A stretch of 64,000 bases of DNA from a virus. The stretch is from the IMG/VR virus record IMGVR_UViG_3300048548_000653, positions 12,978 to 76,977 of that record; one strand, 5' to 3'. Below are positions 2,333 to 20,467 of the stretch, in pieces; position 1 is the stretch's first letter; each line of letters starts with the position of its first letter. The notes beneath the pieces were generated by a model. It was not told the DNA's origin and searched no databases. It saw only the letters and a list, made by a program, of their open reading frames with translations. The translations under genes and the position numbers were made by a program.

Positions 2333-2556
2333 TGTGGGTAGACTATAATATTGATAGTATTCCTGGCGGTAAAGGATTTAAGGTGAAGGGCGATTGGGAA
2401 GGTGAAGTAATGGGTGTAGCTCAAGATGGCACACAAAAAGATCATTGGTTATACAAGCCCGGCGATGTATTTGTTGTAAATGAAAGTGGTTGGTTAGTTA
2501 AGACTGACGAAGTGAATGCACTTCTTCTGAAACACGAGAGTACGAATTCTGAATAA
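2329..2556 (+). CDS. hypothetical protein
   Basis: 75-aa ORF with GGAG RBS, coupled to upstream gene. Confidence 0.6.
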   Translation: MMWVDYNIDSIPGGKGFKVKGDWEGEVMGVAQDGTQKDHWLYKPGDVFVVNESGWLVKTDEVNALLLKHESTNSE

Positions 2557-3166
2557 CTTCGGCAACCTGATGTGATACCATAGTTTCATAATGCGTGTGT
2601 GCTAGTTCTACCTTATCCATATCATTCCTTGATTGCATACTTTCAAGTGTAACAACGCCGTCATTAGGGCCTCCGTGATATGGTACCATTCCGCTAGTAG
2701 TAATTATCTGTGTCCAAGGAATGTTTAATTTTACATCAGTTGCATTTTTTATAGGCAAACTTCTACGACCTACATCTCTAAATAATGGATAACTAGGAAC
2801 AATATATTTTGCCCAGTCTGCTGTCCAGCTTCCAGCAAACGGTGTGCTAATACTTACACCTCCTACTATTCTATGCATCTGTGTTAGGTGTAAAGCATAT
2901 AATCCACCCATACTGTGTCCTATGACAAAGTGTGGTCCTTTGTTTTGAATTTGTTCGCTTATCTTATCAAGATTATAGTAAAACTTATCAGCACTACTAT
3001 AATTTACAAAAATTTCATTTGTAAATTTAGTTTTATTTCGTAAATAATTAAAACTTAAACTAGTTTGGTTTGCCCCGTGTATCCAAATAACATTTATGTC
3101 ATCGGTTTTACGCTTTTCTTCAACAAAAGGCTTATTAAAATAATTCTTGAACAATAAATGCAGCAT
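2498..3166 (-). CDS. alpha/beta hydrolase (lipase/esterase-like)
   Basis: IHGANQ oxyanion loop, GHSMG nucleophile elbow, NDGVV Asp, C-terminal His. Confidence 0.8.
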   Translation of the reverse strand: MLHLLFKNYFNKPFVEEKRKTDDINVIWIHGANQTSLSFNYLRNKTKFTNEIFVNYSSADKFYYNLDKISEQIQNKGPHFVIGHSMGGLYALHLTQMHRIVGGVSISTPFAGSWTADWAKYIVPSYPLFRDVGRRSLPIKNATDVKLNIPWTQIITTSGMVPYHGGPNDGVVTLESMQSRNDMDKVELAHTHYETMVSHQVAEVIQNSYSRVSEEVHSLRQS

Positions 3167-3169
3167 ATA

Positions 3170-5215
3170 TTATTTACTTGTGGCCACAAAAACGCCATTC
3201 CAATCTGAAGGCAAGTCTTGTGTTTTCATATACTCGCATCGTTCAATCCACATATCATAATATTTTTCCATTCTATGGTCAAAATTAGTGTATATTGTTT
3301 TACATAAACGTATAGCTTCATCCCAGTCCTGTGCTTTATATGCAGTATGCATATCGGCGTGTCTACGTTGGGGAACAGACCAAGCAGGTGGACCGCCATC
3401 GAGTACTGTATATATACTAAGTCCTACACTTTTGCCTTTGACTTGCAAGTCATCTACTTTGAGATAGAAGAAATCGTCTTTTGTTTGCTCGTATGTAGAT
3501 TCTCCAACAAGTAGTAGACATCCGTACTCTTTACACTTGCTTTCTACTCTTGCTGCGGTGCTGACAGCGTCTCCAAGGACATCATATGAATGACGTTTAG
3601 TACTTCCCATTTCACCAAGGTAACCCAACCCTGTGTTGATACCAGCACCCATACCAACAGCAGGACGACCATCAGGTATAATAACTTTTTCATTAAATTT
3701 TTCCACTGCTTTAAGCATATCTAAGCCACACTGTACTGCTGAACGAGCGTGGTTAGGATCATCTATAGGCGCATTGTGTATGTGCATACTTGCATCGCCT
3801 ATGTACTTGATAATCATTCCATCCATATCTAAAACAGGTTGTGTAATACTGTCCATATAGCCATTCATAATTTTAGTAAGACCTTTAACATCATCACCAA
3901 AAGATTCACCTAGTGGTGTAAATCCACGCAAATCACTGAACACTATACTAACTTCTTTTTTCATTCCTTCTTTGATTAAAGCAGGATTTTCTTGTAACAT
4001 ACGCACAACTGTAGGAGATGCATATCCAGCAAACTGTTTTTTGATAGCGTTCTTTTGTAAAAACTCGTCAACAAACTTTAATACATAACGTATTAATCCT
4101 ACAAGAATTAAAAATGCAGCAGGTAAAGCACCGTCTACGAGCAAGGCATACTGTGCAAAAATATAGTTGCTACCATAAATGCTGCCGCCAACTGCAAGCA
4201 CAAAAAAGGCTATACCTACATATGTCCATCGTGCGATTAAAATTAGTACTATACCTACTGCTATAAAGGCGGCTAACTCTGCCCACTGTTCTGCGTCTGG
4301 ATGTCTGCTAATATTTGATTGATTAAACACTGTTCCTAGCATTGCTGCTTGTACTTCGTGTGGAAATACGCTGCCTGCTGCTGTTGCTAGTGGCTGTGTA
4401 AGCCCTGCTGCTGTTGGTCCTACAAACACTATACCGCCAGCAAAGTCATCTGGTAAGTCTACTGCGCTCACGCTTTTGCTGCGTTGGCTCCAGTCTATCC
4501 ACACTTCGCCTGTAGGTGATGTTTGTATTATACCAAACTGCGGTATGCGTAGTTTGTCTACACCCATAGGTGATAGTTTGATTTGGAACGAAGGATCACC
4601 TGCTAGAACACGTAGCACTTCCATTGTAACATTTGGATACAATGTGCCGCCGCTTTCAACCACTAAAGGTATTCGTCTTGTTACGCCGTCTACTTCTGCC
4701 CAACTGTTGGTTATTCCACTGCCTACTGCCGAGAATTCCACATCAGGTACATTAGCAATAATACCAGGAACACTAGGAATGGTACCAATATAATCGCTGT
4801 TAACAATAGTAGCACCAGGATTGATCGCTTCATTCTTATTCTCCTCTGCACCCAACATTGTAACGATAACAGGCAATTGCTGCATAGTTAAGGCTAATGT
4901 AGCATCTTCACCTGATCTGTCTGTTTCCGACATCAACACATTGAACACCACTAGTCCAGCGCCTCTGGCATATAAATCCTCTATAAGGCTACCATAATCA
5001 CCTCTCGGCCACGGCCATTGTCCGTATGCCTCTAAACTTGGTTCATCGATGTTCACTGTGTAAATGTTGTTTTCAACAGGTTGTTGATTTACAATAAGTG
5101 TGTCAAAGTATCGTAGTTTAAGACTTTCTAAAAATGGTGGATTACTTTGCATTACCCACGCAAGAATGCCCAAAACTATAATGCTCCATATTGGGGAAAA
5201 TATTAGTTTTTTCAT
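3170..5215 (-). CDS. CHASE2-domain class III adenylate/guanylate cyclase
   Basis: N-terminal TM; CHASE2 motifs (IDEPSL..GQWPWPR, DGVTRR); 3 TMs; cyclase motifs FSDLRGFT, KYIGDA, GINTG, YDVLGDAVSTAAR; C-terminal WNGVF. Confidence 0.92.
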   Translation of the reverse strand: MKKLIFSPIWSIIVLGILAWVMQSNPPFLESLKLRYFDTLIVNQQPVENNIYTVNIDEPSLEAYGQWPWPRGDYGSLIEDLYARGAGLVVFNVLMSETDRSGEDATLALTMQQLPVIVTMLGAEENKNEAINPGATIVNSDYIGTIPSVPGIIANVPDVEFSAVGSGITNSWAEVDGVTRRIPLVVESGGTLYPNVTMEVLRVLAGDPSFQIKLSPMGVDKLRIPQFGIIQTSPTGEVWIDWSQRSKSVSAVDLPDDFAGGIVFVGPTAAGLTQPLATAAGSVFPHEVQAAMLGTVFNQSNISRHPDAEQWAELAAFIAVGIVLILIARWTYVGIAFFVLAVGGSIYGSNYIFAQYALLVDGALPAAFLILVGLIRYVLKFVDEFLQKNAIKKQFAGYASPTVVRMLQENPALIKEGMKKEVSIVFSDLRGFTPLGESFGDDVKGLTKIMNGYMDSITQPVLDMDGMIIKYIGDASMHIHNAPIDDPNHARSAVQCGLDMLKAVEKFNEKVIIPDGRPAVGMGAGINTGLGYLGEMGSTKRHSYDVLGDAVSTAARVESKCKEYGCLLLVGESTYEQTKDDFFYLKVDDLQVKGKSVGLSIYTVLDGGPPAWSVPQRRHADMHTAYKAQDWDEAIRLCKTIYTNFDHRMEKYYDMWIERCEYMKTQDLPSDWNGVFVATSK

Positions 5216-5382
5216 TTATTCAAATCTATCCAAACACAATCTACAGTTTGATTTCTATCTGTCACAAGCACTGCTGCTTTACTTAATGCTGTAACACAAT
5301 CTTCTTTGTCAGCATAATTAGCTAAGTGATAAAGTTCCATTTCCTGAGTGCTTGTTAGTGCTAACCATATTAGTGCCCACAT
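5212..5382 (-). CDS. small exported two-Cys protein (56 aa; not in ORF track)
   Basis: MWALIWLALTSTQEMELYHLANYADKEDC...VDCVWIDLNK; ATGA overlap with cyclase start. Confidence 0.6.
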   Translation of the reverse strand: MWALIWLALTSTQEMELYHLANYADKEDCVTALSKAAVLVTDRNQTVDCVWIDLNK

Positions 5383-5546
5383 AATACTTTCTCCACTAGT
5401 GCTGACTTTAAATGCTCACCATTTTTAACTAGAAACTCTCTAATGTGTTTGTTGCTTGCGTCTGCTAATATCGACATTTCTTCTCCAACCATTACTGTAT
5501 CTGCAGGTAATTTGTCAGCCACAGGTATTTCCTTTTCAAATTTCAT
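5370..5546 (-). CDS. hypothetical protein
   Basis: GGAGAGGGCA before ATG 5546. Confidence 0.55.
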   Translation of the reverse strand: MKFEKEIPVADKLPADTVMVGEEMSILADASNKHIREFLVKNGEHLKSALVEKVLCGH

Positions 5547-5566
5547 TGCCCTCTCCTTACGAGTAT

Positions 5567-5935
5567 TTACCAAGTTTTTTTATTTAACTTAGCTTTTAAT
5601 GAATCCTGCTCTTCACGCTTCTTCCTGGCTTTCTCAACTTCTGCCATAGTATCTTCATACCAGTTTTCATTGTTTACTTTAGCAGTCTTTTTCCGTACTC
5701 TGGGTTGGGAATGTCCGGGTACTTCCAATATAGTACTGGGCTCTTTTTCTCTTTTGGTTTCAATTTGAATCCTTTGTGCTGGTGGCGGAAAATTGTTACG
5801 GAGTCGTTTGATTCGTTCTTGTAGTTCTTTTTGTTTTGACTCATAGTATCTTTCATACATTTTTTCCTTAAAACGTTTGTCTACCATTTCTATTATAAAT
5901 GGTTGTAAAAAACGTGCAAGTAAACGGCCTAACAT
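5567..5935 (-). CDS. hypothetical basic protein
   Basis: TAATG coupling to upstream gene. Confidence 0.55.
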   Translation of the reverse strand: MLGRLLARFLQPFIIEMVDKRFKEKMYERYYESKQKELQERIKRLRNNFPPPAQRIQIETKREKEPSTILEVPGHSQPRVRKKTAKVNNENWYEDTMAEVEKARKKREEQDSLKAKLNKKTW

Positions 5936-6417
5936 TACCAACTTCCATTAATTTTTCCGATTATGTAAACTACAAACACAAGCAAACCTGCACCTATAAT
6001 TGCTGCTATTGACCCAACTATCCATTCTACAATAACTTGTTTGCGTTCTTCTTTTGCATAAACTTCGGCAGCACGTTTTTTACGCATTTCACCTTCAATG
6101 CGTACAATTTCGTCCCAAGCACTTGGACCGTAGTAAAAGCTGATGTGCGTTTTCATTTCTTCACGCATTTCTTTTGCTTTCTGTTTGTGTCCCCAAATTT
6201 CTAGAGCATTTTGCTCTATTTGACTTGCGCCAAACAGTTTTTTGAACATTGGTGGATTTTGTGCTTGTTTGTGTGAAAAGTCTAAATCACTCATTGCGCC
6301 TGCCCACTGCGATAGTGTGCCTGCCATATCGTGCAGTTCTTTTCCGGTGTCTATTGCTGACTTGATTCCGCGATATGCTGCCGTGGCCAGACCAATAGCT
6401 GATACTGGATCTATCAT
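5935..6417 (-). CDS. phage membrane protein with C-terminal TM
   Basis: MIDPVSAIGLA start, helical core, C-terminal hydrophobic helix. Confidence 0.6.
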   Translation of the reverse strand: MIDPVSAIGLATAAYRGIKSAIDTGKELHDMAGTLSQWAGAMSDLDFSHKQAQNPPMFKKLFGASQIEQNALEIWGHKQKAKEMREEMKTHISFYYGPSAWDEIVRIEGEMRKKRAAEVYAKEERKQVIVEWIVGSIAAIIGAGLLVFVVYIIGKINGSW

Positions 6418-6459
6418 TTGCCCTCATTTCTAGTAGATGCCCTCTACTAAAGGTATTTA

Positions 6460-8367
6460 TCAAAACTGGATTTTAAGACCAACACTTAACATATTGCTAC
6501 TAGCGTCATCACTGATACTTCTTTGAAAGTCGCCTACAAACTTTACATTTTCTGTAACTTGCTTGTCAATGCCAATACCAATATTTGTAGTACCTTCGGT
6601 GGTTCTACTAATATGTGCTGTACCAAAGTCGAGATCAAAATTAGCACCTAGTGTAGCATAACGATACGATTCATCAATTGCTTCGTGAACTATAGCACTT
6701 TGTACACTTCCTGTTTCTGTATAAGCATCTGTTGAACGCTTGCCTGCTACAATACCTAGCACTGGACGAACTTGTCCTGTGTTTGGTTCAACTTCTACAT
6801 TTACCCAAGTGTCACTAATAGCATATTCGCCTTGGTTAGTAAAGGTACCAATGTGTCTTTCATATGTAATATCTTGACTAGCACGATTGATTGTACCACG
6901 TACTGTGAATTCATCTAATGCTTTGCTTGCTCCTACGCCCATATGTAGAGTGGTCATATCACCTGTACTACAAGCGTCAGCTTTTGTAGTTATTCTGTTG
7001 ATACCACCTTCAATGGTGATTAAATCGTCTGTAGTGGTCGATCCACCGATACCTAACACACGACTTTCAGCACTACATCCGTGCCCTAAATCTGATGTAA
7101 TACGGCTACCAGCTACATAATCAGCAAAACCCAAACTGTGTAAGTCTACAGCTTGTCCAATCTTTTTACCAGTGTCCATACGTCCTGTAAAGCTGCCTGG
7201 GTCAGTTACAGTTGATACTGCTACTGAATCTGCTGCTGCGCTTGAAGTAAGTGTGCCATCAGTGTATGTATTAGTAACCATAGGTGTTGTAACTATTGTA
7301 GTAGTTTCTCTTGCTATAGTTTGCACGCCTGCTGCTGTTGTGCTATTGTGTGTAGTTTGTGACTGTGTTAGCACTGGCATACTAGTGTCTACAACAGTTT
7401 CAGTTGTAATCACTGGTTCTGCTGCTCCGGCTGCTGCGTCTGTAGCACTACCAACATCTTCTAATGTACCCCAACTACTGATGTCACCACCGCCACCTGC
7501 GCCTGCTGTAATAGCAGCATCGGCAGCATCAAACGCACTTGGTCCAAATATGTATGCGTAACTTGCTGTAAGTATATCGCCTGTGCTTACATCGGCCCAG
7601 TTCCAACTTAGTCCAATAGTGTTGTCGCCTGTGTTTGTGTTTGACTCTGAGTCAAAAGCATTTTCTGTATAAGCATCTGCCTCTGTTGACCAGCCTGTAA
7701 TACCTGCATCAACGTTAGAGTCTGTAGAGTACAGTCCTAGGGCATAGCGTGATACTGTTGCTTCTGCAAATGCTACGTTACTATCTGGAATAACACCATA
7801 ACCTAGCACGTTGTCTGTAGCACTAGTATCGCCTGCTTCTGGCATAGCATCTGGATCAATAAAGCGTCCAAAGCTAAGTGCAGTAGCATCACTACCTGCT
7901 GTAATCTGTGTGCCAATCTCAATGTGTTCTGATGTATCACCTAATGTATATGTGTTTTCTATTTCCCATCCACTGTGAGCAGAATTTGTACCAGTCCAAG
8001 TAAGTGAATTATCACCGTTTGTTAAACCATCTGCATCTACCCAAGTACTTCCGCCCTGGTTATTATTTTTGCTGTTAGTACCATCTATCTTAATAGCAAA
8101 GCCATCAAACGGTGAACCTGGTGTTAGGTAGTCGCCTTGTGCGCTATCTGCTGGAAATGTGCCTGAACCTGTGCTGTCAAACTGTAGTCCTGGACGAGTG
8201 CTTCCGCCTGATCCAAAAGTACCTGCTGTGCCATTCACTCCGGCTTTTACATAACTGTTTTCTAGTACACCCATACCTGTTGCTGTTGTACTAATGCTAC
8301 TTGTATCTGCTAATGCTGTTGTACCAAGTAGTGCTGCCATTACACTGGCAATCATTATTCTTTTCAT
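6460..8367 (-). CDS. autotransporter-like outer-membrane protein
   Basis: signal peptide; Ser/Thr/Gly/Asp-rich passenger; Thr-rich linker; amphipathic beta C-terminus ending LKIQF. Confidence 0.65.
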   Translation of the reverse strand: MKRIMIASVMAALLGTTALADTSSISTTATGMGVLENSYVKAGVNGTAGTFGSGGSTRPGLQFDSTGSGTFPADSAQGDYLTPGSPFDGFAIKIDGTNSKNNNQGGSTWVDADGLTNGDNSLTWTGTNSAHSGWEIENTYTLGDTSEHIEIGTQITAGSDATALSFGRFIDPDAMPEAGDTSATDNVLGYGVIPDSNVAFAEATVSRYALGLYSTDSNVDAGITGWSTEADAYTENAFDSESNTNTGDNTIGLSWNWADVSTGDILTASYAYIFGPSAFDAADAAITAGAGGGGDISSWGTLEDVGSATDAAAGAAEPVITTETVVDTSMPVLTQSQTTHNSTTAAGVQTIARETTTIVTTPMVTNTYTDGTLTSSAAADSVAVSTVTDPGSFTGRMDTGKKIGQAVDLHSLGFADYVAGSRITSDLGHGCSAESRVLGIGGSTTTDDLITIEGGINRITTKADACSTGDMTTLHMGVGASKALDEFTVRGTINRASQDITYERHIGTFTNQGEYAISDTWVNVEVEPNTGQVRPVLGIVAGKRSTDAYTETGSVQSAIVHEAIDESYRYATLGANFDLDFGTAHISRTTEGTTNIGIGIDKQVTENVKFVGDFQRSISDDASSNMLSVGLKIQF

Positions 8368-8429
8368 TTTTTACCCTCTTGTTATGATGCCGGTTGCGCC
8401 CTCACGCCGCGGTCCATATTCTTTGATTG

Positions 8430-8777
8430 TTATTTAAGCATAATCTCCAATCCAAAAACTACGCCGATATCTTTACTTTCTATGCCTGGTGCTAAGAACA
8501 TTCTCATTTTACCTACGTCATATGTGCCTCTGACATACGGAGTAAGTGATCCATTGTTGTAGCCTGTTACAAGTGCAGCTTCAAAACCAAAGTTGTTTAT
8601 TTCTTGTCTGTGTCCTGCATATACACTTAAATTTTCTAAACTGTTATAATATGCGCCTGTGATAAAATTTTCGTGTTCAAACCTAATATGGGGATGTACA
8701 CTATTGTAGTGATCGTCAAATCCAAGATGTAAACTTAAACCTAAACTTAATGTGAATGCTTCAATTATACTATTCAT
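8430..8777 (-). CDS. small outer-membrane beta-barrel-like protein
   Basis: alternating beta strands, GAYYNS motif, ends FGLEIMLK. Confidence 0.5.
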   Translation of the reverse strand: MNSIIEAFTLSLGLSLHLGFDDHYNSVHPHIRFEHENFITGAYYNSLENLSVYAGHRQEINNFGFEAALVTGYNNGSLTPYVRGTYDVGKMRMFLAPGIESKDIGVVFGLEIMLK

Positions 8778-9457
8778 TAGTTGTTCCTATTAACAGACAA
8801 ACTACAACCATTACTGTTAGTACAATATCCTGTGACGCTATAATGGCTAGATGCAGTTGAAACATTCTGAGTAAGTTCAAAGTTGTATGCACCGCCTGAA
8901 TTTGTTAAGTCAACTTCTGCTTCTGCATATTCAGTTCCTCTTTGCATAACATCAACTGAGTGTCCGTCTCCTGTGAGTACAACATCTGCCCATTTTTGCC
9001 CACCATTGCCTCTTTGGTACAAGTTAACTTCGTTGTCATCACCTTGTATTTCTACAAAGCCATCGTGTCCTTGTTTTCCCATTTGCGTATGGTTAACTTC
9101 ATTGTTATCACCATTTACTATATTTGCAAGGTGATGTGCTGCGCCTCCACCACTTCTGTTTGTGTCTGTTTGCGCACTTCCCACTGTGTTTCCATCTCCA
9201 GTTATAGTCCAATATGCTTCGTGTCCACCTTCTTCGTCTATGTCAATAGTGCCATCTACGTGCATACCTTGACGAATTGTAATATTGTTAGAACCACCAT
9301 TGCTGTTTAAACTAACATAGTTGTCCTCGCTACGCTGTTGCACTTCCAATTCAAGGTTGTCGCCTGCTTGGTTTATATAGATTTCGTTACTAAAAGCCAC
9401 GTTGGGAAATATTAATACTATTCCCGCCGCCCACGCCAACACGGTAGCCGTATGCAT
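8777..9457 (-). CDS. curlin-repeat protein (CsgA/CsgB-like)
   Basis: signal peptide; repeated Q-x-G / G-D-x-N beta-arch motifs (INQAGDN, IQGDDNEVNLYQRG). Confidence 0.7.
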   Translation of the reverse strand: MHTATVLAWAAGIVLIFPNVAFSNEIYINQAGDNLELEVQQRSEDNYVSLNSNGGSNNITIRQGMHVDGTIDIDEEGGHEAYWTITGDGNTVGSAQTDTNRSGGGAAHHLANIVNGDNNEVNHTQMGKQGHDGFVEIQGDDNEVNLYQRGNGGQKWADVVLTGDGHSVDVMQRGTEYAEAEVDLTNSGGAYNFELTQNVSTASSHYSVTGYCTNSNGCSLSVNRNN

Positions 9458-10508
9458 AGAAGCCCTCCTGTTCCATATCTATATTATATCCATAACCTTG
9501 ATCCAATGTAAGTTGGAATATGTGTTGATCGCCTTCTTGCCTACGCACTATAAAATTAGGATAATTTTCATCGTAAAAAATATTAGTTTCAGGGTCTAGT
9601 CCTAAAAGCTTTACATCTAATAATTCTTGGTTTTGTACAGAAAGTTCGTCAATCCACTGTGCTAGTATTTCTGCCAACTGTCTCTCCATTTCGTCAATCC
9701 ACACAGGATTCAAGTAAGTCATATTATCCAAATCTGTAACCCAAATACTTTTTATATTTTCAACTAAAGGATCTCTATCTAACTCGTCAAAATTTAAAAA
9801 GTCAATGTCTAATAAATTTGTATTTGGATAGGTTTTGGTTATTTCTTCTGTGTAAGGTGAAACTTTACGTACAAGCAACATTGCTGTAAGCATATTCTCA
9901 GGTAAATCTAATATTACACTTGGGCCTGGAGTTGCACCTCTATGTGGCACCACAGTGGTTTGATAAGCTTGATTCATTATAATTTGACCAACATCTGATT
10001 CTACTGATATTTCTCCTATAACACAAGAACCACTAGCGTCACAACTTGGTAACAGTGTTATCATTGATCCACCTACTTCGTCAATAATCATCATAAAGTC
10101 TGTGCCTCGCACGTTTATTGTAGCACTTGGTGTTCTTATATTCACTCTTTGTCTGCTATTCTTTGCTATTTGTCCTGATGCATATCTAACTGCTCCTAGT
10201 GTGGCTTTCATACTCAGCGCACCAGTTTTTGTGTTGGGATCATATATAAATTCGTCTATGGTCATACGTGAATGTTCTGTTACATCAACACGAGTGTCAT
10301 CTATAAAGTCCATACGCATTGAACCTTTGCCTGTAACGATCCTATCGTTCATTTCAAGACCAAGTCCTACTTCGCCAGTGTATTTTTCTGCTTCACGCTG
10401 AATTGTGCTAGAACCTTTATGTTCTGCTATTTTGCCAATATTTGCATACACTGGGGTTGTTAGTAATAATGCACTAATCAGACTGCGTAATATCAACGTC
10501 TTGTCCAT
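9390..10508 (-). CDS. exported FecR-domain protein
   Basis: signal peptide; NDRIVTG...FIDDTRV..EHS...IRTPSATINVRGTDF FecR signature. Confidence 0.85.
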   Translation of the reverse strand: MDKTLILRSLISALLLTTPVYANIGKIAEHKGSSTIQREAEKYTGEVGLGLEMNDRIVTGKGSMRMDFIDDTRVDVTEHSRMTIDEFIYDPNTKTGALSMKATLGAVRYASGQIAKNSRQRVNIRTPSATINVRGTDFMMIIDEVGGSMITLLPSCDASGSCVIGEISVESDVGQIIMNQAYQTTVVPHRGATPGPSVILDLPENMLTAMLLVRKVSPYTEEITKTYPNTNLLDIDFLNFDELDRDPLVENIKSIWVTDLDNMTYLNPVWIDEMERQLAEILAQWIDELSVQNQELLDVKLLGLDPETNIFYDENYPNFIVRRQEGDQHIFQLTLDQGYGYNIDMEQEGFYAYGYRVGVGGGNSINISQRGF

Positions 10509-11211
10509 CGCCTGAGAATGTAGCATCTACTGTGTTATCTTTTACACCACTTTGTTTAATTTTGTAGTTGCTGCCGCCGCCGGTGATATCTAGTGTTACA
10601 CTGTGTCCTGCGCTGTCTCCATCGCCGTCTTGATCTATTTCGACTAACACACCGCCTTGTTCTGTTGTGTAAGTTGATGATGAGTCTGAGGTTGTAGCTG
10701 ACGAAAGTGTAGAATTATTGTCTATTGTAACATTGACTACCGCACTTGTGCCGTCAACTTCTGTGATCAATATGCTTCCGTCGCCCTCTACTGTAAAATC
10801 AATTTGCGCTCCGTCTGCATCTGCTGTTTCACCAATTTCTAAATAATACTTGTTGGTATCTCCTGTAGTTGCAATATTCAGTGTGACGTTTTCACAGTTT
10901 ACACCTGAGGTATTATCGCAGACTAAATCAACAAAATTGTTGTTGCCTGTAAAAGTCCAAGTACCAGTATATGTATTACCTTTTATTTTTGCATCAATTA
11001 TGTTTGCATTACCTGTTTGAGTAATACTAAAAGTCATATCATCGCCATCAAGCATTGCGTCGGTGGTTGAATCACCAAATTCGTTGTCAGTCCCATCTTG
11101 TGTAATATCTAAATCAAGGGTGTCACCTATTTGTGTAATGTAAATCTCGTTTGCATTTGCTGCACTTACGAGAACCAATGATAGGATGAACCCATATAAT
11201 ATTGCCCTCAT
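10474..11211 (-). CDS. curlin-repeat protein (CsgA/CsgB-like)
   Basis: signal peptide ending ANA; repeats ITQIGD, ITQDGTDN, ITQTGNAN, KQSGVKDN, ITQSD. Confidence 0.7.
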   Translation of the reverse strand: MRAILYGFILSLVLVSAANANEIYITQIGDTLDLDITQDGTDNEFGDSTTDAMLDGDDMTFSITQTGNANIIDAKIKGNTYTGTWTFTGNNNFVDLVCDNTSGVNCENVTLNIATTGDTNKYYLEIGETADADGAQIDFTVEGDGSILITEVDGTSAVVNVTIDNNSTLSSATTSDSSSTYTTEQGGVLVEIDQDGDGDSAGHSVTLDITGGGSNYKIKQSGVKDNTVDATFSGDGQDVDITQSD

Positions 11212-11241
11212 ATTTTTCCACCTCCGGCTTTTAGCCAAATA

Positions 11242-11272
11242 TATTTATAATATGTTGATATTATTATAAATA
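11242..11272. promoter_or_regulatory. back-to-back T4-type late promoters (TATAAATA on both strands)
   Basis: TATTTATA at 11242-11249 and TATAAATA at 11265-11272, between divergent genes. Confidence 0.7.
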
Positions 11273-11285
11273 CAATGTTATTTAG

Positions 11286-11301
11286 TGTAAATATTTTTAC
11301 A
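11286..11301. promoter_or_regulatory. palindromic operator TGTAA-N6-TTACA
   Basis: tgtaaatatttttaca just upstream of the Fis-type HTH gene. Confidence 0.4.
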
Positions 11302-11317
11302 GTAAAGCGGGTATATA

Positions 11318-11587
11318 ATGAAACTAAATACAGTTATGATGGCATTAAAACAAGCAGAAAAAAATCATAAAGAACAGCAGGCCTTTTGGGATGTATTTGA
11401 CGAGATATGGCCGCCCGAAGAAAGACAAGATGATAAATGTTTGCACCAAGAAGTAGACGATTTTATAATAGATAGGATTGCAGCGGCTCTAAAAGAGTGC
11501 AATCACAATCGCACACACACTGCTGATAAGTTAGGAATAAAAAGAGAAACCTTATTGGCTAAGATGAAGAAGTACTGTCTTGTTTAA
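11318..11587 (+). CDS. Fis-family (HTH_8) DNA-binding protein
   Basis: IAAALKECNHNRTHTADKLGIKRETLLAKMKKY matches the Fis/NtrC C-terminal HTH. Confidence 0.85.
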   Translation: MKLNTVMMALKQAEKNHKEQQAFWDVFDEIWPPEERQDDKCLHQEVDDFIIDRIAAALKECNHNRTHTADKLGIKRETLLAKMKKYCLV

Positions 11588-12359
11588 ATTTCCATAGATT
11601 TTGTGCAGCACCTTGATAAATCATTTCAATTACTGCGGCCTCGATGGCTTGACGCACGGCATAATTTGATGCTTCATTTACACTATATCCAGTTTCGATT
11701 TCTAATGCTTGTGTACCTAAATCAAAAAACTTGAATGCGTTTGCACCTTGTCTGTAACTAGCAATTGATTTTTCTGCTGCTACGCTTACCAATACACGAC
11801 CTGTGCTTACGCTTACAAGACGCATTGCAACTGTCACAGTATCAACTCTATATTCTACCGCAGTACCGATTCCCATATACATAGCACCATTGCCGCCTGT
11901 AGAAATATTACTGTCATATCCTATAATACCGCCTTCTAGTAATATACCTGCAAATTTCATAGGTGATAGAGAAACTTCTTTTTCACCATAGTTTTCCCTT
12001 GTATTGCGTATAACCTGACGTTCTTTGATCACGTGATCCATTCCACCTCGTTCTACAACTTCAAACCAAGTACCGTTGCCTGCTTGCAATAGTGCATCTA
12101 TTACCCAAACTTCTGCACCTTGTGTAACTGCACTACTCAAGTTTGAAATACTTTCAGAGGGTTTACGTTGCCCTGTTTTATCTGCAAACTCATAAACACC
12201 TACTGTCATTACAGGACCATCCAATGGCTGAAGTTTATTTAATTCTTCTACCATTGGATTATCCTGCACTTTTGCAGCATTTTGCAGCATAGTTGGAACT
12301 TCTCCTTGTGTTGCACAACCTGCAACAAATAACATTGCTAATATTGCTATAAATTTCAA
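11559..12359 (-). CDS. csgG: curli secretion channel lipoprotein CsgG
   Basis: lipobox VAGC; VYEFADKTGQRKP, AVTQGA, WFEVVER, EGGIIGYD, DTVTVAMR motifs. Confidence 0.92.
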   Translation of the reverse strand: MKFIAILAMLFVAGCATQGEVPTMLQNAAKVQDNPMVEELNKLQPLDGPVMTVGVYEFADKTGQRKPSESISNLSSAVTQGAEVWVIDALLQAGNGTWFEVVERGGMDHVIKERQVIRNTRENYGEKEVSLSPMKFAGILLEGGIIGYDSNISTGGNGAMYMGIGTAVEYRVDTVTVAMRLVSVSTGRVLVSVAAEKSIASYRQGANAFKFFDLGTQALEIETGYSVNEASNYAVRQAIEAAVIEMIYQGAAQNLWKFKQDSTSSS

Positions 12360-12829
12360 AAGTTAAATTCCCCCATTCCTGGTATCACTATTTCCGTGTA
12401 GCCATCTGGACCATCGATAATAAGTGTTATACTTCCTGTGACTTCATCTTTGCTCCAAGCAATTTCTGCTCCTTCAACTTCTGTGGTTCCTGAATTAGAA
12501 CACGCAGGCTGATCATCTGCTCCGCAGGCTGCAAACATATTGTCAACTAACTGTTTACTAAGTGTAGCATATATACGTGATTCTAAGTTACGGATAAACT
12601 TATTAAGCACCGTGTTTTCAAGTTCACGCTCAATGCGTTCTGCTTCACGTTCCGCATCTTTTCTGATATCTTCTTTACGATTAAAAGTAAGTTGTTCAAG
12701 GCTCAACATATGAGCACTGTAGCCTTGTCCTGTAAATGTAGGAGATTTAAAATTGTGTACTAAATCGCCGCTGGCTACTCCGGGGGTAACCATTAATATG
12801 AAAAAAATAATTTTAAAATAATATTGCAT
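12356..12829 (-). CDS. csgF: curli assembly protein CsgF
   Basis: signal peptide then LVHNFKSPTFTG (CsgF F-x-P-x-F-G); FIRNLESRIYATLSKQL; directly upstream of csgG. Confidence 0.8.
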   Translation of the reverse strand: MQYYFKIIFFILMVTPGVASGDLVHNFKSPTFTGQGYSAHMLSLEQLTFNRKEDIRKDAEREAERIERELENTVLNKFIRNLESRIYATLSKQLVDNMFAACGADDQPACSNSGTTEVEGAEIAWSKDEVTGSITLIIDGPDGYTEIVIPGMGEFNF

Positions 12830-12861
12830 AAAGCTATTTATTAACAAAAAAGTTGAGAATA

Positions 12862-13932
12862 TTAAATCATTGCTTTGTTTAAAGTAAGTTGAGCCCATTG
12901 TTCTCGGCCAGCACCTGCTTGTGTTGGTATAACACTGATTGATAAGCCGCCTGCGTGTCCGCCTGTTCTGAATGCTTGTAAATCTGCTGCATTTTTTAGC
13001 ATTGCAGTTTTTTGATTAGGAATACTCATTAGCAATAGTGCATCAAAGTCGTCTCTATTTTTATACCATTCAAAGTTTGCAGCCAAATAAGCTAGTTCAA
13101 CTTGTGCTGTGTCTTCAGTTGTTGCAATTTTATCTGCAACTGATGCAGCATAATTCTCCATATCCATTTGCAGTAAATCAAGCATTAATGCTTTTCTTAC
13201 CTTTTGGTTTTCTGGAACATTTGTAGGAAGGTCTTGATTTAAAGCAGCCATAAAAGGTCCTAGTCCGAGACTTCCGCCTTTTTGTCCAATGGCTCCAATT
13301 ACTGACGGTATTTTTTCTTCATACTTTTGTAGGACTGCACGTTTTGCTTTTTGACTTCCGCCACCGTAACCGATACGTCCACCACTAGAACTCATAGCTG
13401 CTTTAAGTTCTACTTTCCCAATTCCATCTATTTCTAAATCGCCTTCGCCTTGTGCAAGTCTAATTTTGTTTGATAAACAGGCTAGTCCATATTCGCCTGG
13501 ACCTTTTTGTTTTTTACCTACACCATATGCTGCTAATTTTCTAAAAGCTGCACCTCCGGCTTCGTCTCCAAACACTGCGCTAAAGGTATTGAGTGGCTTT
13601 GACAGAGATGTAATATCTACTACGCCGCCGCCTTCTAATCTTTTAAGAAGAGCGCTCATTGTTTTATAATCGCTTTCGATTGTACTAAAAATTTTAGTCA
13701 TATCTTGGCGCACTAGTAACTTTTCTTTTTGACCCATATTTTCATCTTGAAGAGGAATATCAAAAGCATTGTCAATGTTACTACTAATAGTACCACTGTT
13801 AAGTATTTTCCATATTCTATCTAATAAATTAGCTTCATCTTGATTATCTGCCGACAATCCGGATATAGTTGATATAATTTGATCTTTTTCTTGACTTAAG
13901 TCTGTGTATTCAACAAGGTCTTTATAACGCAT
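12862..13932 (-). CDS. phage protein with putative PD-(D/E)XK nuclease motif
   Basis: GPGE...GDLEIDGIGKVELKA; late promoter upstream. Confidence 0.45.
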   Translation of the reverse strand: MRYKDLVEYTDLSQEKDQIISTISGLSADNQDEANLLDRIWKILNSGTISSNIDNAFDIPLQDENMGQKEKLLVRQDMTKIFSTIESDYKTMSALLKRLEGGGVVDITSLSKPLNTFSAVFGDEAGGAAFRKLAAYGVGKKQKGPGEYGLACLSNKIRLAQGEGDLEIDGIGKVELKAAMSSSGGRIGYGGGSQKAKRAVLQKYEEKIPSVIGAIGQKGGSLGLGPFMAALNQDLPTNVPENQKVRKALMLDLLQMDMENYAASVADKIATTEDTAQVELAYLAANFEWYKNRDDFDALLLMSIPNQKTAMLKNAADLQAFRTGGHAGGLSISVIPTQAGAGREQWAQLTLNKAMI

Positions 13933-13953
13933 TTTTCACTCCTGATATTGTAT

Positions 13954-14640
13954 TTAGTCAATGTCAGGGAATAAACATTCCTGTACGAATACTCGTACAT
14001 CCTCTTCGTCGAGTCCTAAACTGGTCATTGTTTTAGGAGTGTGCGGATTTTGTTTTTGATAATGTGCATAACGATTCTGTGCTGTTTTTACTTCGTCTGT
14101 ATCTGCTGTATGATTATGATTACCAATGTCTGTAAGATAAGCATCTACACTGTCTAAACTCAACTCTAACAGTTGATCAAGTTCTTCACGTTTGTTCACA
14201 TTGCCTGCTGCTACCATATGCGGTGAGAAGATTGCTTGAGCCCATTCAGGTAGTTCACGTTCTTTGCGCCATTCAAGTTTGCTTACTTCGTCACCAAATG
14301 CTTCAATCATTGGATGATCGGCATCTATAGTTCTACTGTAGTCGTGGAAGAACCCTGTAATTTTATTTTTACCAGCAATAACATCTAGTCCAAAAACAGG
14401 ACCGTTATTGTCTAGTCTTGGAAAAACACAACAATGCATCATCCACAAACCTTTGGTTTCACGCACATCCACAACATCAATGTGTGCTCTACGATAGCTG
14501 TCACTTTGCCATACTCTGTTTAACCAACCAGGCTGATTGAATCTATCCATTCCTGGCTCTTGTATTTCTGTACCCGTAGCGTCAAATGCATCAATTAACC
14601 TGTCTTGTATTTCTATTAAGGTTTCCCAAACTTCACTCAT
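13954..14640 (-). CDS. pcyX: ferredoxin-dependent bilin reductase PcyX
   Basis: RRAHIDVVD, WMMHCCVFP, PVFGLD, ELPEWAQAIFS, QKQNPHT; His69/Asp86 pair; adjacent to heme oxygenase. Confidence 0.88.
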   Translation of the reverse strand: MSEVWETLIEIQDRLIDAFDATGTEIQEPGMDRFNQPGWLNRVWQSDSYRRAHIDVVDVRETKGLWMMHCCVFPRLDNNGPVFGLDVIAGKNKITGFFHDYSRTIDADHPMIEAFGDEVSKLEWRKERELPEWAQAIFSPHMVAAGNVNKREELDQLLELSLDSVDAYLTDIGNHNHTADTDEVKTAQNRYAHYQKQNPHTPKTMTSLGLDEEDVRVFVQECLFPDID

Positions 14641-15160
14641 TATTTAATTCCTCAAACAATTTGGTTGCATATTTAAAACAAATATTTGCTTCCTCTGCCA
14701 TTTCGTCATCCAACACAGTACGAACTTTTATTTTAAGGTCTTCGACATTATCAAAATCATACATAACACCTTTTGTAAATGGAATACGTTTTTTAATCAT
14801 TTGACCTCCATACATATCTCCAAAGTGTCTAACATAAACGTGGGCCATTAGTTCATCACTATCAAGTGTAGGAAGGTAATTAATATAATCTACAGCACTA
14901 GGTTTTAGTTTATCTTTTGTTCTTTTAAAACCATATTCGTGTTCTAATTCTTTTAAATCAATACTAATGCGTTTGGCTCTGCGTATGTCTTCAATGCCGT
15001 CTAAGTCAGCTAATGATTCAAGAGAACCGTAGATAATAAATTGATTGTACAAGTAGGTGTGATATTGTTCAGGAGTAATACCATTCATAAGTTTCCTGGC
15101 AAATGCTGTTCTTTCAGCATTTTGATGATTCTCCCAAGTAAGTTCTTTAAGTTTGCTCAT
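14633..15160 (-). CDS. hemO: heme oxygenase
   Basis: LKELTWENHQNAE proximal His; HVYVRHFGDMYGGQ distal helix. Confidence 0.92.
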   Translation of the reverse strand: MSKLKELTWENHQNAERTAFARKLMNGITPEQYHTYLYNQFIIYGSLESLADLDGIEDIRRAKRISIDLKELEHEYGFKRTKDKLKPSAVDYINYLPTLDSDELMAHVYVRHFGDMYGGQMIKKRIPFTKGVMYDFDNVEDLKIKVRTVLDDEMAEEANICFKYATKLFEELNNE

Positions 15161-15459
15161 TCTTCCTCAATTTTTACATTTAGCTGAAACCCATTTTGCC
15201 TTGCTAAATTTACAGTTTCCGTAGCTTTTTGTTCTGCTATTTCGTAACTATATATACCTGCAACTCCGCTTCCTTCTTCGTGAATTTGAATGGTTAAAGC
15301 AGAAGCAGTTTCAAAAGAGTGTTTGAATATTTCTTGTAAAATACTTACAACAAAATCCATTGGTGTTTTATCATCATTAAGGAAAATGACTTTGCAATCC
15401 TTAGGTTCTGAAATATCAATTTCAATTTTTTCGTCAATTACTACATCAGTTTTATTCAT
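15157..15459 (-). CDS. clpS: Clp protease adaptor ClpS
   Basis: VIFLNDDKTPMDFVV, IHEEGSGVAG, EIAEQK. Confidence 0.93.
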   Translation of the reverse strand: MNKTDVVIDEKIEIDISEPKDCKVIFLNDDKTPMDFVVSILQEIFKHSFETASALTIQIHEEGSGVAGIYSYEIAEQKATETVNLARQNGFQLNVKIEEE

Positions 15460-15470
15460 ATTTTTCTCCT

Positions 15471-15497
15471 AAAAATGGGGGGCTGTTACTCCCCCAT
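15471..15497 (-). terminator. Rho-independent terminator/hairpin after hsp20
   Basis: G/C stem followed by T run on minus strand. Confidence 0.55.
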
Positions 15498-15502
15498 AAC
15501 TA

Positions 15503-15949
15503 TTAGCCTTCAATTGCATCAAAGTTTTTGATAGAAATTTTCTTTGGTTTCTGTGCTTCTGGTACATTGCGCACCAAATGAATGTTAAGCATACCTAGTT
15601 CAAGCCCGGCTTGTTCTACTTCAATATGCTCTGCTAGAGTAAACTCTCTACGGAAGTTGCGTCCGCCAATACCTTTGTGTAGGTAGTTAACTTCTTCATC
15701 TCCTTTAGGAGTAGTACCTTCAACAGTCAATACATTTTTCTCCAATGTAATGTCTAAATTGTCCATACCAAATCCAGCAACCGCCAACGAGATCATATAT
15801 TCGTCTTCGTTGATTTCTACTACATTGTATGGTGGGTAACCTTGTGATTTACTGTTTGCAAACTCTTTGTTGAGTTGGTTAAACATTCTATCAAAGCCAA
15901 TAGTTGCTCTGTGAAATTCAGGTAGGTTTAGTGTTTGTAATCTTGTCAT
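15503..15949 (-). CDS. ibpA: small heat-shock protein Hsp20 (IbpA-like)
   Basis: IGFDRM, YPPYNV, LAVAGF, YLHKGI, GMLNIHL, KKISI; AGGAG RBS before ATG 15949. Confidence 0.93.
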   Translation of the reverse strand: MTRLQTLNLPEFHRATIGFDRMFNQLNKEFANSKSQGYPPYNVVEINEDEYMISLAVAGFGMDNLDITLEKNVLTVEGTTPKGDEEVNYLHKGIGGRNFRREFTLAEHIEVEQAGLELGMLNIHLVRNVPEAQKPKKISIKNFDAIEG

Positions 15950-16000
15950 TTGTTTCTCCTTATAAAGCAAGAATTATATTGAGCCCTTTCGGCGCTCACA
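15947..16000 (-). promoter_or_regulatory. ROSE-like RNA thermometer in hsp20 leader
   Basis: UUCUUGCUUUAUAAGGAGAA hairpin with UUGCU opposite the SD; upstream GAAA-loop hairpin; TAAATA at 16003-16008. Confidence 0.7.
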
Positions 16001-16001
16001 G

Positions 16002-17141
16002 TTATTTACCAATTGTCGATGATTCATACACCGAATTGTGTGTTTGTGAGCAACGAATAAAAGTTGCACACTTACTAAGTTGCTTGAGTTTTAATGCACC
16101 TGTATAGGTACACGCACTACGCACTCCTCCAAGGATCTCTTGTACTGTTCTAGCTACAGGTCCTCTATAAGGCACAAGCACTGTGCGTCCTTCTGATGAA
16201 CGATAATTTTTTAGTCCACCAAAATGCTTGTCATTTGCACTTTCACTACTCATACCGTAGAATTGCACAAAATGTTTTTCTTTAAACTTTCGAGTCCTTC
16301 CATCATCCTGGAATTCATCTGTAATATACTTTCTAGTAATTACTTCGCCGCCGCCTTCATCGTGCCCAGCAAGCATACCACCAAGCATAACAAAATCTGC
16401 ACCGGCTGCAAAGGCTTTAGCGACATCTCCAGAGCTATTACACCCACCGTCAGCAATAATGTGACCACCAAGTCCGTGTGCTGCATCAGCGCATTCGATG
16501 ACTGCAGATAGTTGCGGATATCCCACACCAGTTTGTATCCTAGTAGTGCAAACAGACCCGGGACCAATGCCCACTTTAACAATATCAGCTCCTGCAAGAA
16601 TAAGTTCCTCCGTCATTTCTCGTGTAACAACATTACCTGCAATGATTACCAAGTCTGGAAAATCGTCTCTTACTTTACGAACGTGTTGTGCAAAGTGATC
16701 GCTGTAACCATTGGCAATGTCCATACATACATATTTAAGCCTGTAGTCACATTCTTTTTTCACTTTCAATAATTTGTTATAATCACTTTCGCCTGTGCCA
16801 ATACTCATTGCAACATTTTCAGTACGTTCAAGCCCAATATCAGAATTAAAATATTCTATCAACTCTTCAGCACTGAAAGTTTTTACAAGACAAGTAAACA
16901 TTTCGCCTTCTGCTAATTTATCAGCCATACGAAACGTTCCGACACCATCCATATTGCTTGCCATAATAGGAATACCCATATAATGATATTCATCAGGCAA
17001 TGGTTCTGCAATGTCGTGATCATAATGCCGAAATTGAAACTTACGATTTAATTTCACTTGTTTCCGGCTATGCAATGTACTGCGTTTTGGACGTATAAGA
17101 ACGTCTTTGTAATCTAATTTAATGTCTTCTTCGAGACGCAT
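16002..17141 (-). CDS. guaC: GMP reductase
   Basis: [41 protein letters not shown]. Confidence 0.93.
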
Positions 17142-17405
17142 TTAATAACCTAACTGATCTTTTAATTTTATTTGATTTCTTTTGAATCGTCTAATGGCAG
17201 CTTTTTTTGCAAGTCTTTTTTTAGTGCCTTTACTTTCAAAATATTCACGCTTTCTTAGCTCTTGCATTAATCCATCTTCTGAGATCTTTTTCTTGAGCTT
17301 TCGCATTGCTTTGGTTACATCGTTGTTTATTACATTAACTTGTAAACCTTGTTTGTTCCAGTCGTCGTTATGTTTTTTTCGATTGTTTTTCATTTTGTCC
17401 TTCAT
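17142..17405 (-). CDS. rpsU: ribosomal protein bS21
   Basis: VINNDVTKAMRKLKKK...GLMQELRKREYFESKGTKKR. Confidence 0.85.
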   Translation of the reverse strand: MKDKMKNNRKKHNDDWNKQGLQVNVINNDVTKAMRKLKKKISEDGLMQELRKREYFESKGTKKRLAKKAAIRRFKRNQIKLKDQLGY

Positions 17406-19960: not shown

Positions 19961-19972
19961 TATATTATTTAA

Positions 19973-20455: not shown

Positions 20456-20467
20456 ATCTACCTTTTA

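Follow-up and report, generated by a model that had tools for sequence, protein, structure and literature searches.

A marine T4-like phage contig carries an enlarged variant of the viral curli module with a FecR–CHASE2 cyclase pair

A 64,000-nucleotide stretch of the IMG/VR virus record IMGVR_UViG_3300048548_000653 (positions 12,978 to 76,977 of that record; hereafter the window) contains, between its positions 3170 and 12829, a block of genes in which a curli-type export channel is joined to a predicted envelope sensor. The window is part of a 77-kb viral contig whose CheckV completeness estimate of 24% marks it as a fragment, and which carries T4-like phage genes, with the OM43 phage Melnitz and the SAR11 phage HTVC008M (both Kyanoviridae) as its nearest named relatives. 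This block is almost certainly the already published viral curli (type VIII secretion) module, here enlarged and in a new variant. To the published core, the present data add a bacterial pedigree for the FecR-CHASE2 pair, complete cassettes on bacterial chromosomes, a C-terminal FecR domain specific to curli-linked proteins, a derived catalytic site in the cyclase, and the cargo and control region of the lineage. All block genes from csgF to the cyclase lie on the minus strand, except for one plus-strand helix-turn-helix (HTH) gene, and the core genes are the following.

12356..12829, minus strand: csgF (Pfam PF10614, E 7e-9, 36.3 bits, cut-off 25.8)
11559..12359, minus strand: csgG, outer-membrane lipoprotein channel (Pfam PF03783, E 2e-48)
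10474..11211, minus strand: curlin-repeat protein 1 (Pfam Curlin_rpt, 23.6 bits, cut-off 20.7), with a signal peptide and the mature N-terminus NEIYITQ
9390..10526, minus strand: exported FecR-domain protein (Pfam FecR PF04773, E 2e-7), with a signal peptide
8777..9457, minus strand: curlin-repeat protein 2 (Pfam Curlin_rpt, E 4e-7, 30.3 bits, cut-off 20.7), with a signal peptide followed by NEIYINQ
3170..5215, minus strand: CHASE2 class III nucleotide cyclase (Pfam CHASE2 E 3e-36, Guanylate_cyc E 7e-19)

The curli channel, its substrates and the published viral module

A preliminary description of the window, made from its letters alone, had named these genes, and its account of the gene content proves real: Pfam backs csgF, csgG, the two curlin-repeat proteins, FecR and the CHASE2 cyclase, and a fold match backs an additional autotransporter-like gene. 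The alignment of CsgG with its E. coli counterpart (E 5e-42) spans the whole protein and includes the lipobox cysteine. The csgF gene, which overlaps csgG by 4 nt as had been noted, is 68-83% identical across 17 viral loci and finds no sequence match among PDB structures; its open reading frame (ORF) is open from 12898 (12356-12898), and the likely start is the ATG at 12829, which leads into a hydrophobic signal sequence. Both curlin-repeat proteins likewise start with hydrophobic signal-type segments, and the phage curlins have in common the mature N-terminus N(E/D)IY(I/V)xQxGD. The start codon of curlin1 (ATG at 11211) has a Shine-Dalgarno (SD) sequence, and curlin2 also matches the NCBIfam CsgA model with E 2e-6, under that model's cut-off. 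The overlaps of the curlin and FecR reading frames that had been reported are confirmed, with 53 nt between curlin1 and FecR and 68 nt between FecR and curlin2. Because of their signal peptides, their conserved mature N-terminus and the presence of the same genes on bacterial chromosomes, the curlin-repeat proteins appear to be exported substrates rather than virion parts, with amyloid formation being a prediction only.

Compared with the curli system of E. coli, the window shares the CsgG lipoprotein channel, a CsgF family member and secreted curlin-repeat proteins, but the block is without the CsgE gate, the CsgC chaperone and the CsgD regulator, and its curlin-like proteins are longer (226-254 aa) and matched by the repeat model only in part. 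The lack of CsgE and CsgC, already remarked on in the preliminary description, holds at E <= 0.1 across the fragmentary 77-kb contig, where an E. coli control was positive, and three cassette-bearing bacterial genomes likewise give no match at this threshold.

As a cluster, csg genes with FecR and an adenylate cyclase are not new. Zaragoza-Solas et al. 2020 (PMC7029224) found csgFG in pelagimyophages, Buchholz et al. 2022 (PMC9004378) discussed csgFG of Melnitz as a lysis pore and stated that fibre genes were missing, and Wittmers et al. 2022 (PMC9599517) described, for podo- and myophages, the full viral type VIII secretion system (T8SS), to which FecR, a second CsgA/B and an adenylate cyclase belong, and reported that it lacks CsgE, is abundant across the ocean and is expressed. 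The CHASE2 domain is mentioned in none of these three accounts of the module. The order csgF-csgG-curlin-FecR-curlin-cyclase, which matches the window, is annotated in both HTVC008M (gp014-019) and Melnitz (gp99-104); contrary to the text of Buchholz et al., the GenBank record of Melnitz itself thus annotates two curlin-repeat proteins, a FecR protein and a cyclase. Podovirus versions often have no cyclase, and in them a histidine-kinase gene precedes csgF (PMC9599517). Such a kinase is not universal in myophage versions, and none was recognised before csgF in the window, where the gene at 12862-13932 has no match in Pfam, PHROG or NCBIfam. Four marine RNA-library runs, from two studies, contain short assembled contigs whose sequence is identical to portions of the block; their depth is low, DNA carry-over is possible, and they are no proof of transcription.

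Like the published pelagiphage region, the window comes from a marine T4-like phage and is without CsgE, CsgC and CsgD, and its cassette proteins are 44-54% identical to those of Melnitz and 31-48% to those of HTVC008M. The core order is common to 17 related IMG/VR loci, in which it reads haem oxygenase, bilin reductase, a variable stretch, csgF, csgG, an antisense HTH gene, curlin1, FecR, curlin2, variable cargo, cyclase and alpha/beta-hydrolase. Features of this lineage that the Melnitz/HTVC008M-type region does not share are the haem oxygenase and bilin reductase genes upstream, the Fis-type HTH gene that runs antisense between csgG and curlin1 beside a conserved palindrome, a variable cargo of up to 3.5 kb inserted after curlin2 and before the cyclase, and the hydrolase after the cyclase.

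The two curlin-repeat proteins also bear on the proposal made for Melnitz (PMC9004378), by which CsgG, with or without CsgF, would set the time of lysis by depolarising the envelope, in the manner of a pinholin or as a gated channel. The constriction of CsgG, with Ser/Asn/Leu here instead of the Tyr/Asn/Phe of E. coli (two of three residues changed), and the missing CsgE gate would suit such a role. However, the proposal assumed that there were no fibre genes, while two curlin-repeat proteins with signal peptides are present both in the window and in the Melnitz annotation; an outer-membrane pore would be unable to depolarise the inner membrane; and the same cassette sits on bacterial chromosomes, where a role in lysis makes no sense. 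A lysis-timing pore is therefore very improbable.

A FecR-fold protein paired with a CHASE2 cyclase

The AlphaFold (AF2) model of the FecR protein, with a mean predicted local distance difference test score (pLDDT) of 84.9, lays out an N-terminal beta-domain (residues 27-215), a flexible linker, a helix (274-302) and a C-terminal six-stranded beta-domain (316-375). Residues 58-215 match the periplasmic signalling domain of PupR (6ovk_R; Z 15.2, root-mean-square deviation (rmsd) 2.6 over 135 residues), and residues 27-121 resemble the RIN plug 5ix9 with a middling Z of 7.7 (below 8; rmsd 2.1, 73 of 76 residues aligned, 23% identity). The FecR family profile also finds RIN 5ix9 by sequence (E 0.0015), whereas the NCBIfam retention-module model has no match to the protein. 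A placement of the RIN plug on the C-terminal domain was considered and dropped, as VIA-align and the profile search put the match at residues 27-121 of the N-domain.

These relatives help to say what the protein is not. In the model, a signal-type helix (residues 4-21) runs straight into the beta-domain, and there is neither a cytoplasmic anti-sigma domain nor a membrane anchor. Because these two elements are absent, the model indicates that the phage protein is not a FecR-type anti-sigma factor; with the PupR/FecR anti-sigma regulators it shares the fold of the signalling domain, but not their anti-sigma domain, anchor or partners. Similarly, the first ~95 residues of the phage N-domain may be akin to the RIN plug of MpIBP/LapA-type RTX adhesins, but the phage protein has a Sec-type signal and no RTX repeats, and the block is without type I secretion genes. 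In MpIBP, the RIN plug holds the adhesin in an outer-membrane pore, and the PupR-type and RIN relatives both function in the periplasm, at the opening of an outer-membrane protein (PMC5550230). As a side observation, the Halieaceae metagenome-assembled genome (MAG) locus L044 has at 9974-20464 a reading frame, open over no fewer than 3,497 aa, that carries a FecR/RIN-like domain at its N-terminus and probably encodes a giant adhesin whose N-terminal module is of the retention type.

A role in iron or nutrient uptake, in which FecR would be an iron-citrate-type regulator and an ungated CsgG would import cofactors, is suggested by the Pfam family name and by a passage in the discussion of Wittmers et al. 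(PMC9599517). The missing anti-sigma domain and anchor argue against it, as does the fact that the block proteins include, by Pfam, neither a FecI-type or other extracytoplasmic function (ECF) sigma factor nor a TonB-dependent transducer; moreover, the cellular homologues pair with CHASE2 sensors and not with FecI/FecA. Such an uptake function is scarcely credible.

The C-terminal beta-domain (316-375), modelled with pLDDT > 90, sets the curli-linked FecR proteins apart. A hidden Markov model of this domain finds it in all four bacterial csg-linked FecR proteins and in 23 of the 25 phage FecR genes that are complete, but in none of ~30 from csg-less loci; the extra domain is specific to csg-linked FecR proteins.

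In the cyclase, the Pfam CHASE2 domain spans residues 17-324 and Guanylate_cyc residues 419-596, and hydrophobic segments at 1-19, 322-340 and 357-375 predict a periplasmic CHASE2 domain and a cytoplasmic cyclase domain. Alignment to solved cyclases confirms the ATP-type specificity residues named in the preliminary description, with the Lys in IIKYIGD and the Asp in SYDVLG. Both metal-binding aspartates are present (FSD at 428, IGD at 474), as is the transition-state Arg in AARVES. Bacterial cassettes and basal phages (HTVC008M, L023, L025; loci are numbered with L where they have to be told apart) have Lys, Ser/Thr and the canonical transition-state Asn, which is the ancestral state, and the derived combination of Lys, Asp and Ser in place of Asn is strictly conserved in the window clade, Melnitz, L022, L027 and L029. 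The coupled change at the active site separates L001, L022, L027 and L029 from L002, L023, L025, L026 and L031. A C-terminal extension of ~75 aa is found in the window clade and in Melnitz, but not in HTVC008M. The enzyme is 82-87% identical across the lineage and 51% to Melnitz, is under strong constraint and is predicted to be of the ATP type.

The pairing of FecR and CHASE2 is older than its phage setting. A scan of species-representative bacterial genomes with the FecR-family profile gave 46 loci, which were mapped with profiles of the viral proteins; 34 of them are csg-less, and 30 of these have flanks sufficient to be judged. In 20 of these 30, the FecR homologue has a CHASE2 protein as its immediate neighbour, and FecR with CHASE2 is for this reason a pre-existing bacterial sensor pair, not an iron regulator. 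Alphaproteobacteria (Hoeflea, Anderseniella, Rhizobiaceae, Hyphomicrobiales) have a cyclase as the output, Betaproteobacteria (Giesbergeria, Simplicispira) another one. Pairings have been reported in Burkholderiales, Campylobacterota and S. meliloti (PMC5192318, PMC9239204, PMC5498481), among them a LysM-FecR protein with a CHASE2 histidine kinase ('BiofilmReg') in Burkholderia and CHASE2 cyclase clusters in Campylobacterota. As in the window, these pairs have an exported FecR-fold protein beside a membrane protein with a periplasmic CHASE2 domain, joined to a class III cyclase in Alphaproteobacteria, but they have no curli genes, a shorter FecR protein without the C-domain, and cyclases that fall in a separate clade.

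The preliminary description had taken as established that rhizobial CHASE2 cyclases are activated through a FecR-containing protein, a statement that needs to be narrowed. A FecR-domain gene, smc02177, does lie next to cyaD1 in S. meliloti, but it is said not to be required for signal perception (PMC5498481); the required upstream component there is reported to be the outer-membrane barrel NsrA, of the NsrA-CyaK/CyaD system.

Joint inheritance and cassettes on bacterial chromosomes

The preliminary description had treated the block as one system, and its genes are intact and indeed inherited as a unit: their order is kept in the 17 IMG/VR loci, in Melnitz and in HTVC008M, and the csg-linked sequences form single clades. 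Specifically, in quick trees with support from the Shimodaira-Hasegawa-like approximate likelihood ratio test (SH-aLRT), the csg-linked cyclases, whether of phages or of cells, group in a single clade (support 100) that excludes the csg-less alphaproteobacterial ones, and the FecR N-domain tree shows the same split between csg-linked and csg-less sequences (98/98). Because both trees agree in this split, the linkage of csg genes to FecR and the cyclase appears to have arisen once and to have travelled as a unit. The four sequences from bacterial cassettes group together in the cyclase tree (99), and in both trees the bacterial sequences neighbour the phage-like L025; the cassette clade is a three-way polytomy in both trees, which is compatible with transfer between phage and cell in either direction.

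The complete cassette of csgF, csgG, curlin(s), FecR and CHASE2 cyclase is present on bacterial chromosomes, contrary to a published statement. It was found in two Henriciella and two Caulobacteraceae MAGs (L026, L028, L031, L032), in one of the Henriciella cases on a 397-kb contig. The flanks are cellular, with TonB receptors, alanine racemase, acyl-CoA dehydrogenase and methylmalonyl-CoA mutase, and the G+C content of the cassettes (50-53%) is near that of their own flanks, as against ~38% in the phage. These Caulobacterales cassettes, known from MAGs and not from isolates, agree with the phage block in gene order, in the FecR C-domain, in their cyclase and FecR clades and in the absence of CsgE and CsgC; they differ in that Henriciella has one long 504-aa curlin-like gene, while Caulobacteraceae have two curlin genes before FecR.

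Loci L021-L025, L027, L029 and L030 were rejected as bacterial, since their low G+C content and flanks like those of pelagimyophages identify them as mis-binned T4-like phage contigs; such contigs sit in reference MAGs labelled actinobacterium, Luteolibacter, Bacteroidetes, Flavobacteriaceae, Rhodobacteraceae and Pirellulales. In the Caulobacteraceae cassette L026, a calcineurin-like metallophosphoesterase gene (5803-6663) lies directly upstream of csgF, and by analogy with the CHASE2 cyclase clusters of Campylobacterota it could encode a cyclic-nucleotide phosphodiesterase.

The taxonomic order of the cassette-bearing bacteria was also sampled with 301 genomes, 203 of which have a CsgG-family match (~36 of them strong, that is, canonical CsgG) and 119 a CHASE2 match; the sample includes one unpublished genome (G048), which has one weak CsgG-family match and on which no other claim depends. 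Weak CsgG-family matches (E 1e-12 to 1e-22), often multicopy and distinct from the canonical curli CsgG, are found in two thirds of the 301 genomes. These may be paralogues of the HfaB type, a holdfast anchor.

Control region, cargo and the possible working of the cassette

Between csgG and curlin1 lies a conserved control region, along with a stand-alone HTH gene that went unmentioned in the preliminary description.

11212..11317, no strand assigned: divergent control region of 106 bp between csgG and curlin1, far better conserved than the flanking genes
11218-11225: SD sequence of curlin1, in the control region
11226-11236: hairpin GGC-N5-GCC, just before the curlin1 SD sequence
11242-11249, minus strand: late box for the curlin unit, 31 nt upstream of the curlin1 ATG
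11265-11272, plus strand: late box upstream of the HTH gene
11286-11301: 16-bp perfect palindrome TGTAAATATTTTTACA, between late box and HTH start codon
11318..11587, plus strand: stand-alone Fis-type HTH gene of 89 aa, antisense, overlapping the 3' end of csgG (Pfam HTH_8 E 2e-10; NCBIfam Fis/NtrC-type C-terminal HTH)

The HTH gene is in the same place and antisense in 17 of 17 lineage loci (53-81% identity) and absent from Melnitz and HTVC008M. The palindrome occurs in all nine sequences compared, once with a single-base variant, and boxes, hairpin and SD sequence are largely conserved. That late promoters drive the block, as had been suggested, holds for a part of it only: the unit from curlin to cyclase has one exact late box, and none lies upstream of csgF and csgG. 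With 10 occurrences in the window where 8.7 are expected, the T4-type late box TATAAATA shows no enrichment, and the block has a single divergent pair. From curlin1 to the hydrolase, adjacent genes either overlap or are separated by no more than 62 nt, which makes one late transcript across this unit plausible.

This region speaks for regulation from the inside out, in which the cyclase, possibly with the HTH protein and the palindrome, would set the expression of curli and surface genes and report nothing on fibres. Wittmers et al. suggest a likeness to the control of csgD by cyclic AMP (cAMP) and CRP in enterobacteria (PMC9599517), and the conserved palindrome has a CRP-like half-site geometry and a dedicated HTH gene beside it at the promoter of the curlin unit. 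However, Melnitz and HTVC008M keep the cassette without HTH gene and palindrome, the cyclase is the last gene of the very late transcript that it would regulate, no cAMP receptor was found on the contig, and a CHASE2 domain that lies outside the cytoplasm and has an exported partner points to extracytoplasmic sensing. Regulation of this kind is quite improbable.

The genes between curlin2 and the cyclase, and the one that follows the cyclase, are listed below.

8430..8777, minus strand: 115-aa PagP-like small protein (PHROG 3600 'PagP', E 6e-12; nearest named atlas cluster PagP at 0.91, a lead only)
6460..8367, minus strand: 635-aa type Va autotransporter-like protein with signal peptide, passenger, Thr/Ala-rich linker, ~12-strand barrel and C-terminal Phe
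5212..6417, minus strand: four small overlapping ORFs, variable cargo whose presence differs among related loci, as follows
5935-6417, minus strand: 160 aa with a predicted C-terminal transmembrane helix (PHROG 32327, unknown function)
5567-5941, minus strand: 124 aa, highly charged, no Pfam, PHROG or NCBIfam match
5370-5573, minus strand: 67 aa, no Pfam, PHROG or NCBIfam match
5212-5382, minus strand: 56 aa, no Pfam, PHROG or NCBIfam match
2498..3166, minus strand: alpha/beta-hydrolase (Pfam Hydrolase_4 / Abhydrolase_6 at threshold)

That the 115-aa protein is a small outer-membrane barrel, as had been described, is less firm than stated: the protein is only weakly PagP-like, and a signal peptide is not recognisable. 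The autotransporter assignment is on firmer ground. The AF2 model of the 635-aa protein is confident only at the C-terminus (residues 400-635, pLDDT 70-93), and this part matches NalP (1uyo; Foldseek E 5.5e-8, TM score 0.68) and also, with Foldseek probability 1.0, the barrels of EstA, AaaA, BrkA, Hbp, EspP and AIDA-I. With type Va autotransporters such as NalP, EstA, BrkA, EspP and AIDA-I the protein shares signal peptide, passenger, translocator barrel and terminal Phe; unlike them, it is phage-encoded, dispensable for the cassette and without a match to any Pfam, PHROG or NCBIfam model, including those for autotransporters. A beta-supersandwich enzyme as the passenger was considered and rejected (Foldseek rmsd 30 Å, atlas scores <= 0.85). 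Metagenomes hold 1,369 homologues of the protein.

The PagP-like gene is present in most related loci but not in L019, the autotransporter gene is absent from L017, L019 and L020, and the small ORFs overlap one another by 4-13 nt. Because its content changes from locus to locus, the PagP-like, autotransporter and small-ORF cargo lies outside the core mechanism. In the window the hydrolase gene lies 3 nt after the cyclase; it is the cyclase's neighbour in each lineage locus that reaches at least 600 nt beyond that gene (L005-L007, L015-L020; 65-75% identity) and is absent from Melnitz and HTVC008M; despite its constant position in the lineage, its membership of the system is unproven.

Directly upstream of the curli genes, at 13954-15970, are genes for a ferredoxin-dependent bilin reductase, a haem oxygenase, a ClpS-like protein and an Hsp20-type chaperone, and the bilin reductase and haem oxygenase are kept in all related loci. 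Close homologues of the FecR protein and the autotransporter (proteins P0034, P0057, P0295 and P0350) sit on contigs of 245-363 kb, which, together with the CheckV estimate, suggests that the genome of the window phage lineage may be unusually large by the standards of T4-like marine phages.

Taken together, the data are compatible with a model in which two bacterial envelope devices were joined once and then passed on together between phages and a few Caulobacterales. The first device would be the CsgG/CsgF outer-membrane channel with two Sec-exported curlin-repeat substrates, and the second a sensor pair of an exported FecR/RIN-fold protein and an inner-membrane CHASE2 class III cyclase of the ATP type. 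Late in infection, one transcript from the box at 11242-11249 would supply curlins, FecR, surface cargo and cyclase, and the curlins would exit via CsgG/CsgF. The FecR protein would stay in the periplasm, its N-domain, whose fold has two characterised relatives that both dock on outer-membrane proteins, contacting CHASE2 and its csg-specific C-domain contacting the curli machinery, such that the output of the cyclase would follow the state of secretion or of the envelope. The data themselves establish the gene identities, the folds, the joint inheritance and the pairing of FecR with CHASE2 in bacteria; the physical contacts, the direction of signalling, cAMP as the product and its targets are what we infer, and the outside-in step of the preliminary description, from fibre or surface contact to cAMP, is purely conjectural. 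We put the favoured reading as a whole, that is, a variant of the published module together with secretion-coupled sensing, at an even balance; the sensing mechanism by itself is a tentative proposal that falls somewhat short of even. Its most specific form, in which the FecR protein is the physical coupler, with its C-domain on CsgG/CsgF or on the emerging curlin and its N-domain on CHASE2, so that cAMP reports channel occupancy or fibre loading, is unlikely to be right in just these terms.

Several observations weigh against secretion-coupled sensing. The FecR C-domain, which would have to contact the curli machinery, finds no fold match (best Z <= 3.0), and the idea that it is itself curlin-like failed in an hhalign comparison with the curlin profile (probability 2.5%, E 0.018). 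The replacement of the transition-state Asn by Ser (GDAVSTAAR) in the window clade and Melnitz makes both activity and product of the cyclase uncertain. That the system is self-contained, as the preliminary description had it, is likewise not supported, since no cAMP receptor was found on the contig; specifically, no cyclic-nucleotide-binding (cNMP_binding) domain was found on this 77-kb fragment. Furthermore, csgF and csgG are not behind the promoter of the curlin unit but sit in a unit with haem oxygenase, bilin reductase and p356, the last of which has no match in Pfam, PHROGs or NCBIfam.

Other points against it speak at the same time for two independent modules that merely travel together, in which curli would bring a surface change (aggregation or 'sibling capture', or a block to superinfection) and FecR-CHASE2 would be a separate envelope sensor that manipulates cAMP-dependent physiology of the host, with no flow of information between them. 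Most bacterial FecR-CHASE2 pairs are without csg genes. In the sampled taxonomic order, adjacency of CsgG and CHASE2 is rare, with the query genome as the only case among the matches listed (~36 canonical CsgG genomes). Unrelated cargo of up to 3.5 kb can separate curlin2 from the cyclase, L022 has the cyclase gene in inverted orientation, and the podovirus versions often dispense with it (PMC9599517). Against independence stand the FecR gene wedged between the curlin genes with overlapping reading frames, the monophyly of csg-linked FecR and of csg-linked cyclase, the C-terminal domain exclusive to csg-linked FecR, and a linkage that has held in phages and bacterial chromosomes alike. On balance, we hold two independent modules to be unlikely.

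The module has implications beyond this contig. The viral T8SS module is reported to make up ~0.1% of viral proteins in GOV2 (PMC9599517), and metagenomes contain 3,384 FecR-family matches. SAR11 and OM43 are reported to have no curli-type channel and no envelope-gated cyclase of their own (PMC9599517, PMC9004378), and the module would give infected cells both. What CHASE2 domains sense is listed as unknown (PMC5192318). As such, the repeated pairing of CHASE2 with exported FecR-fold proteins, here tied to a defined outer-membrane channel, provides a small expressible system in which to study how CHASE2 is switched. The chromosomal cassettes, in turn, correct a statement in the literature and offer a phage-free group of organisms for functional studies. 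If the FecR protein is indeed the coupler, the general 'ligand' of CHASE2 would be no small molecule but a partner protein, and the cassette would be the minimal system in which to prove it.

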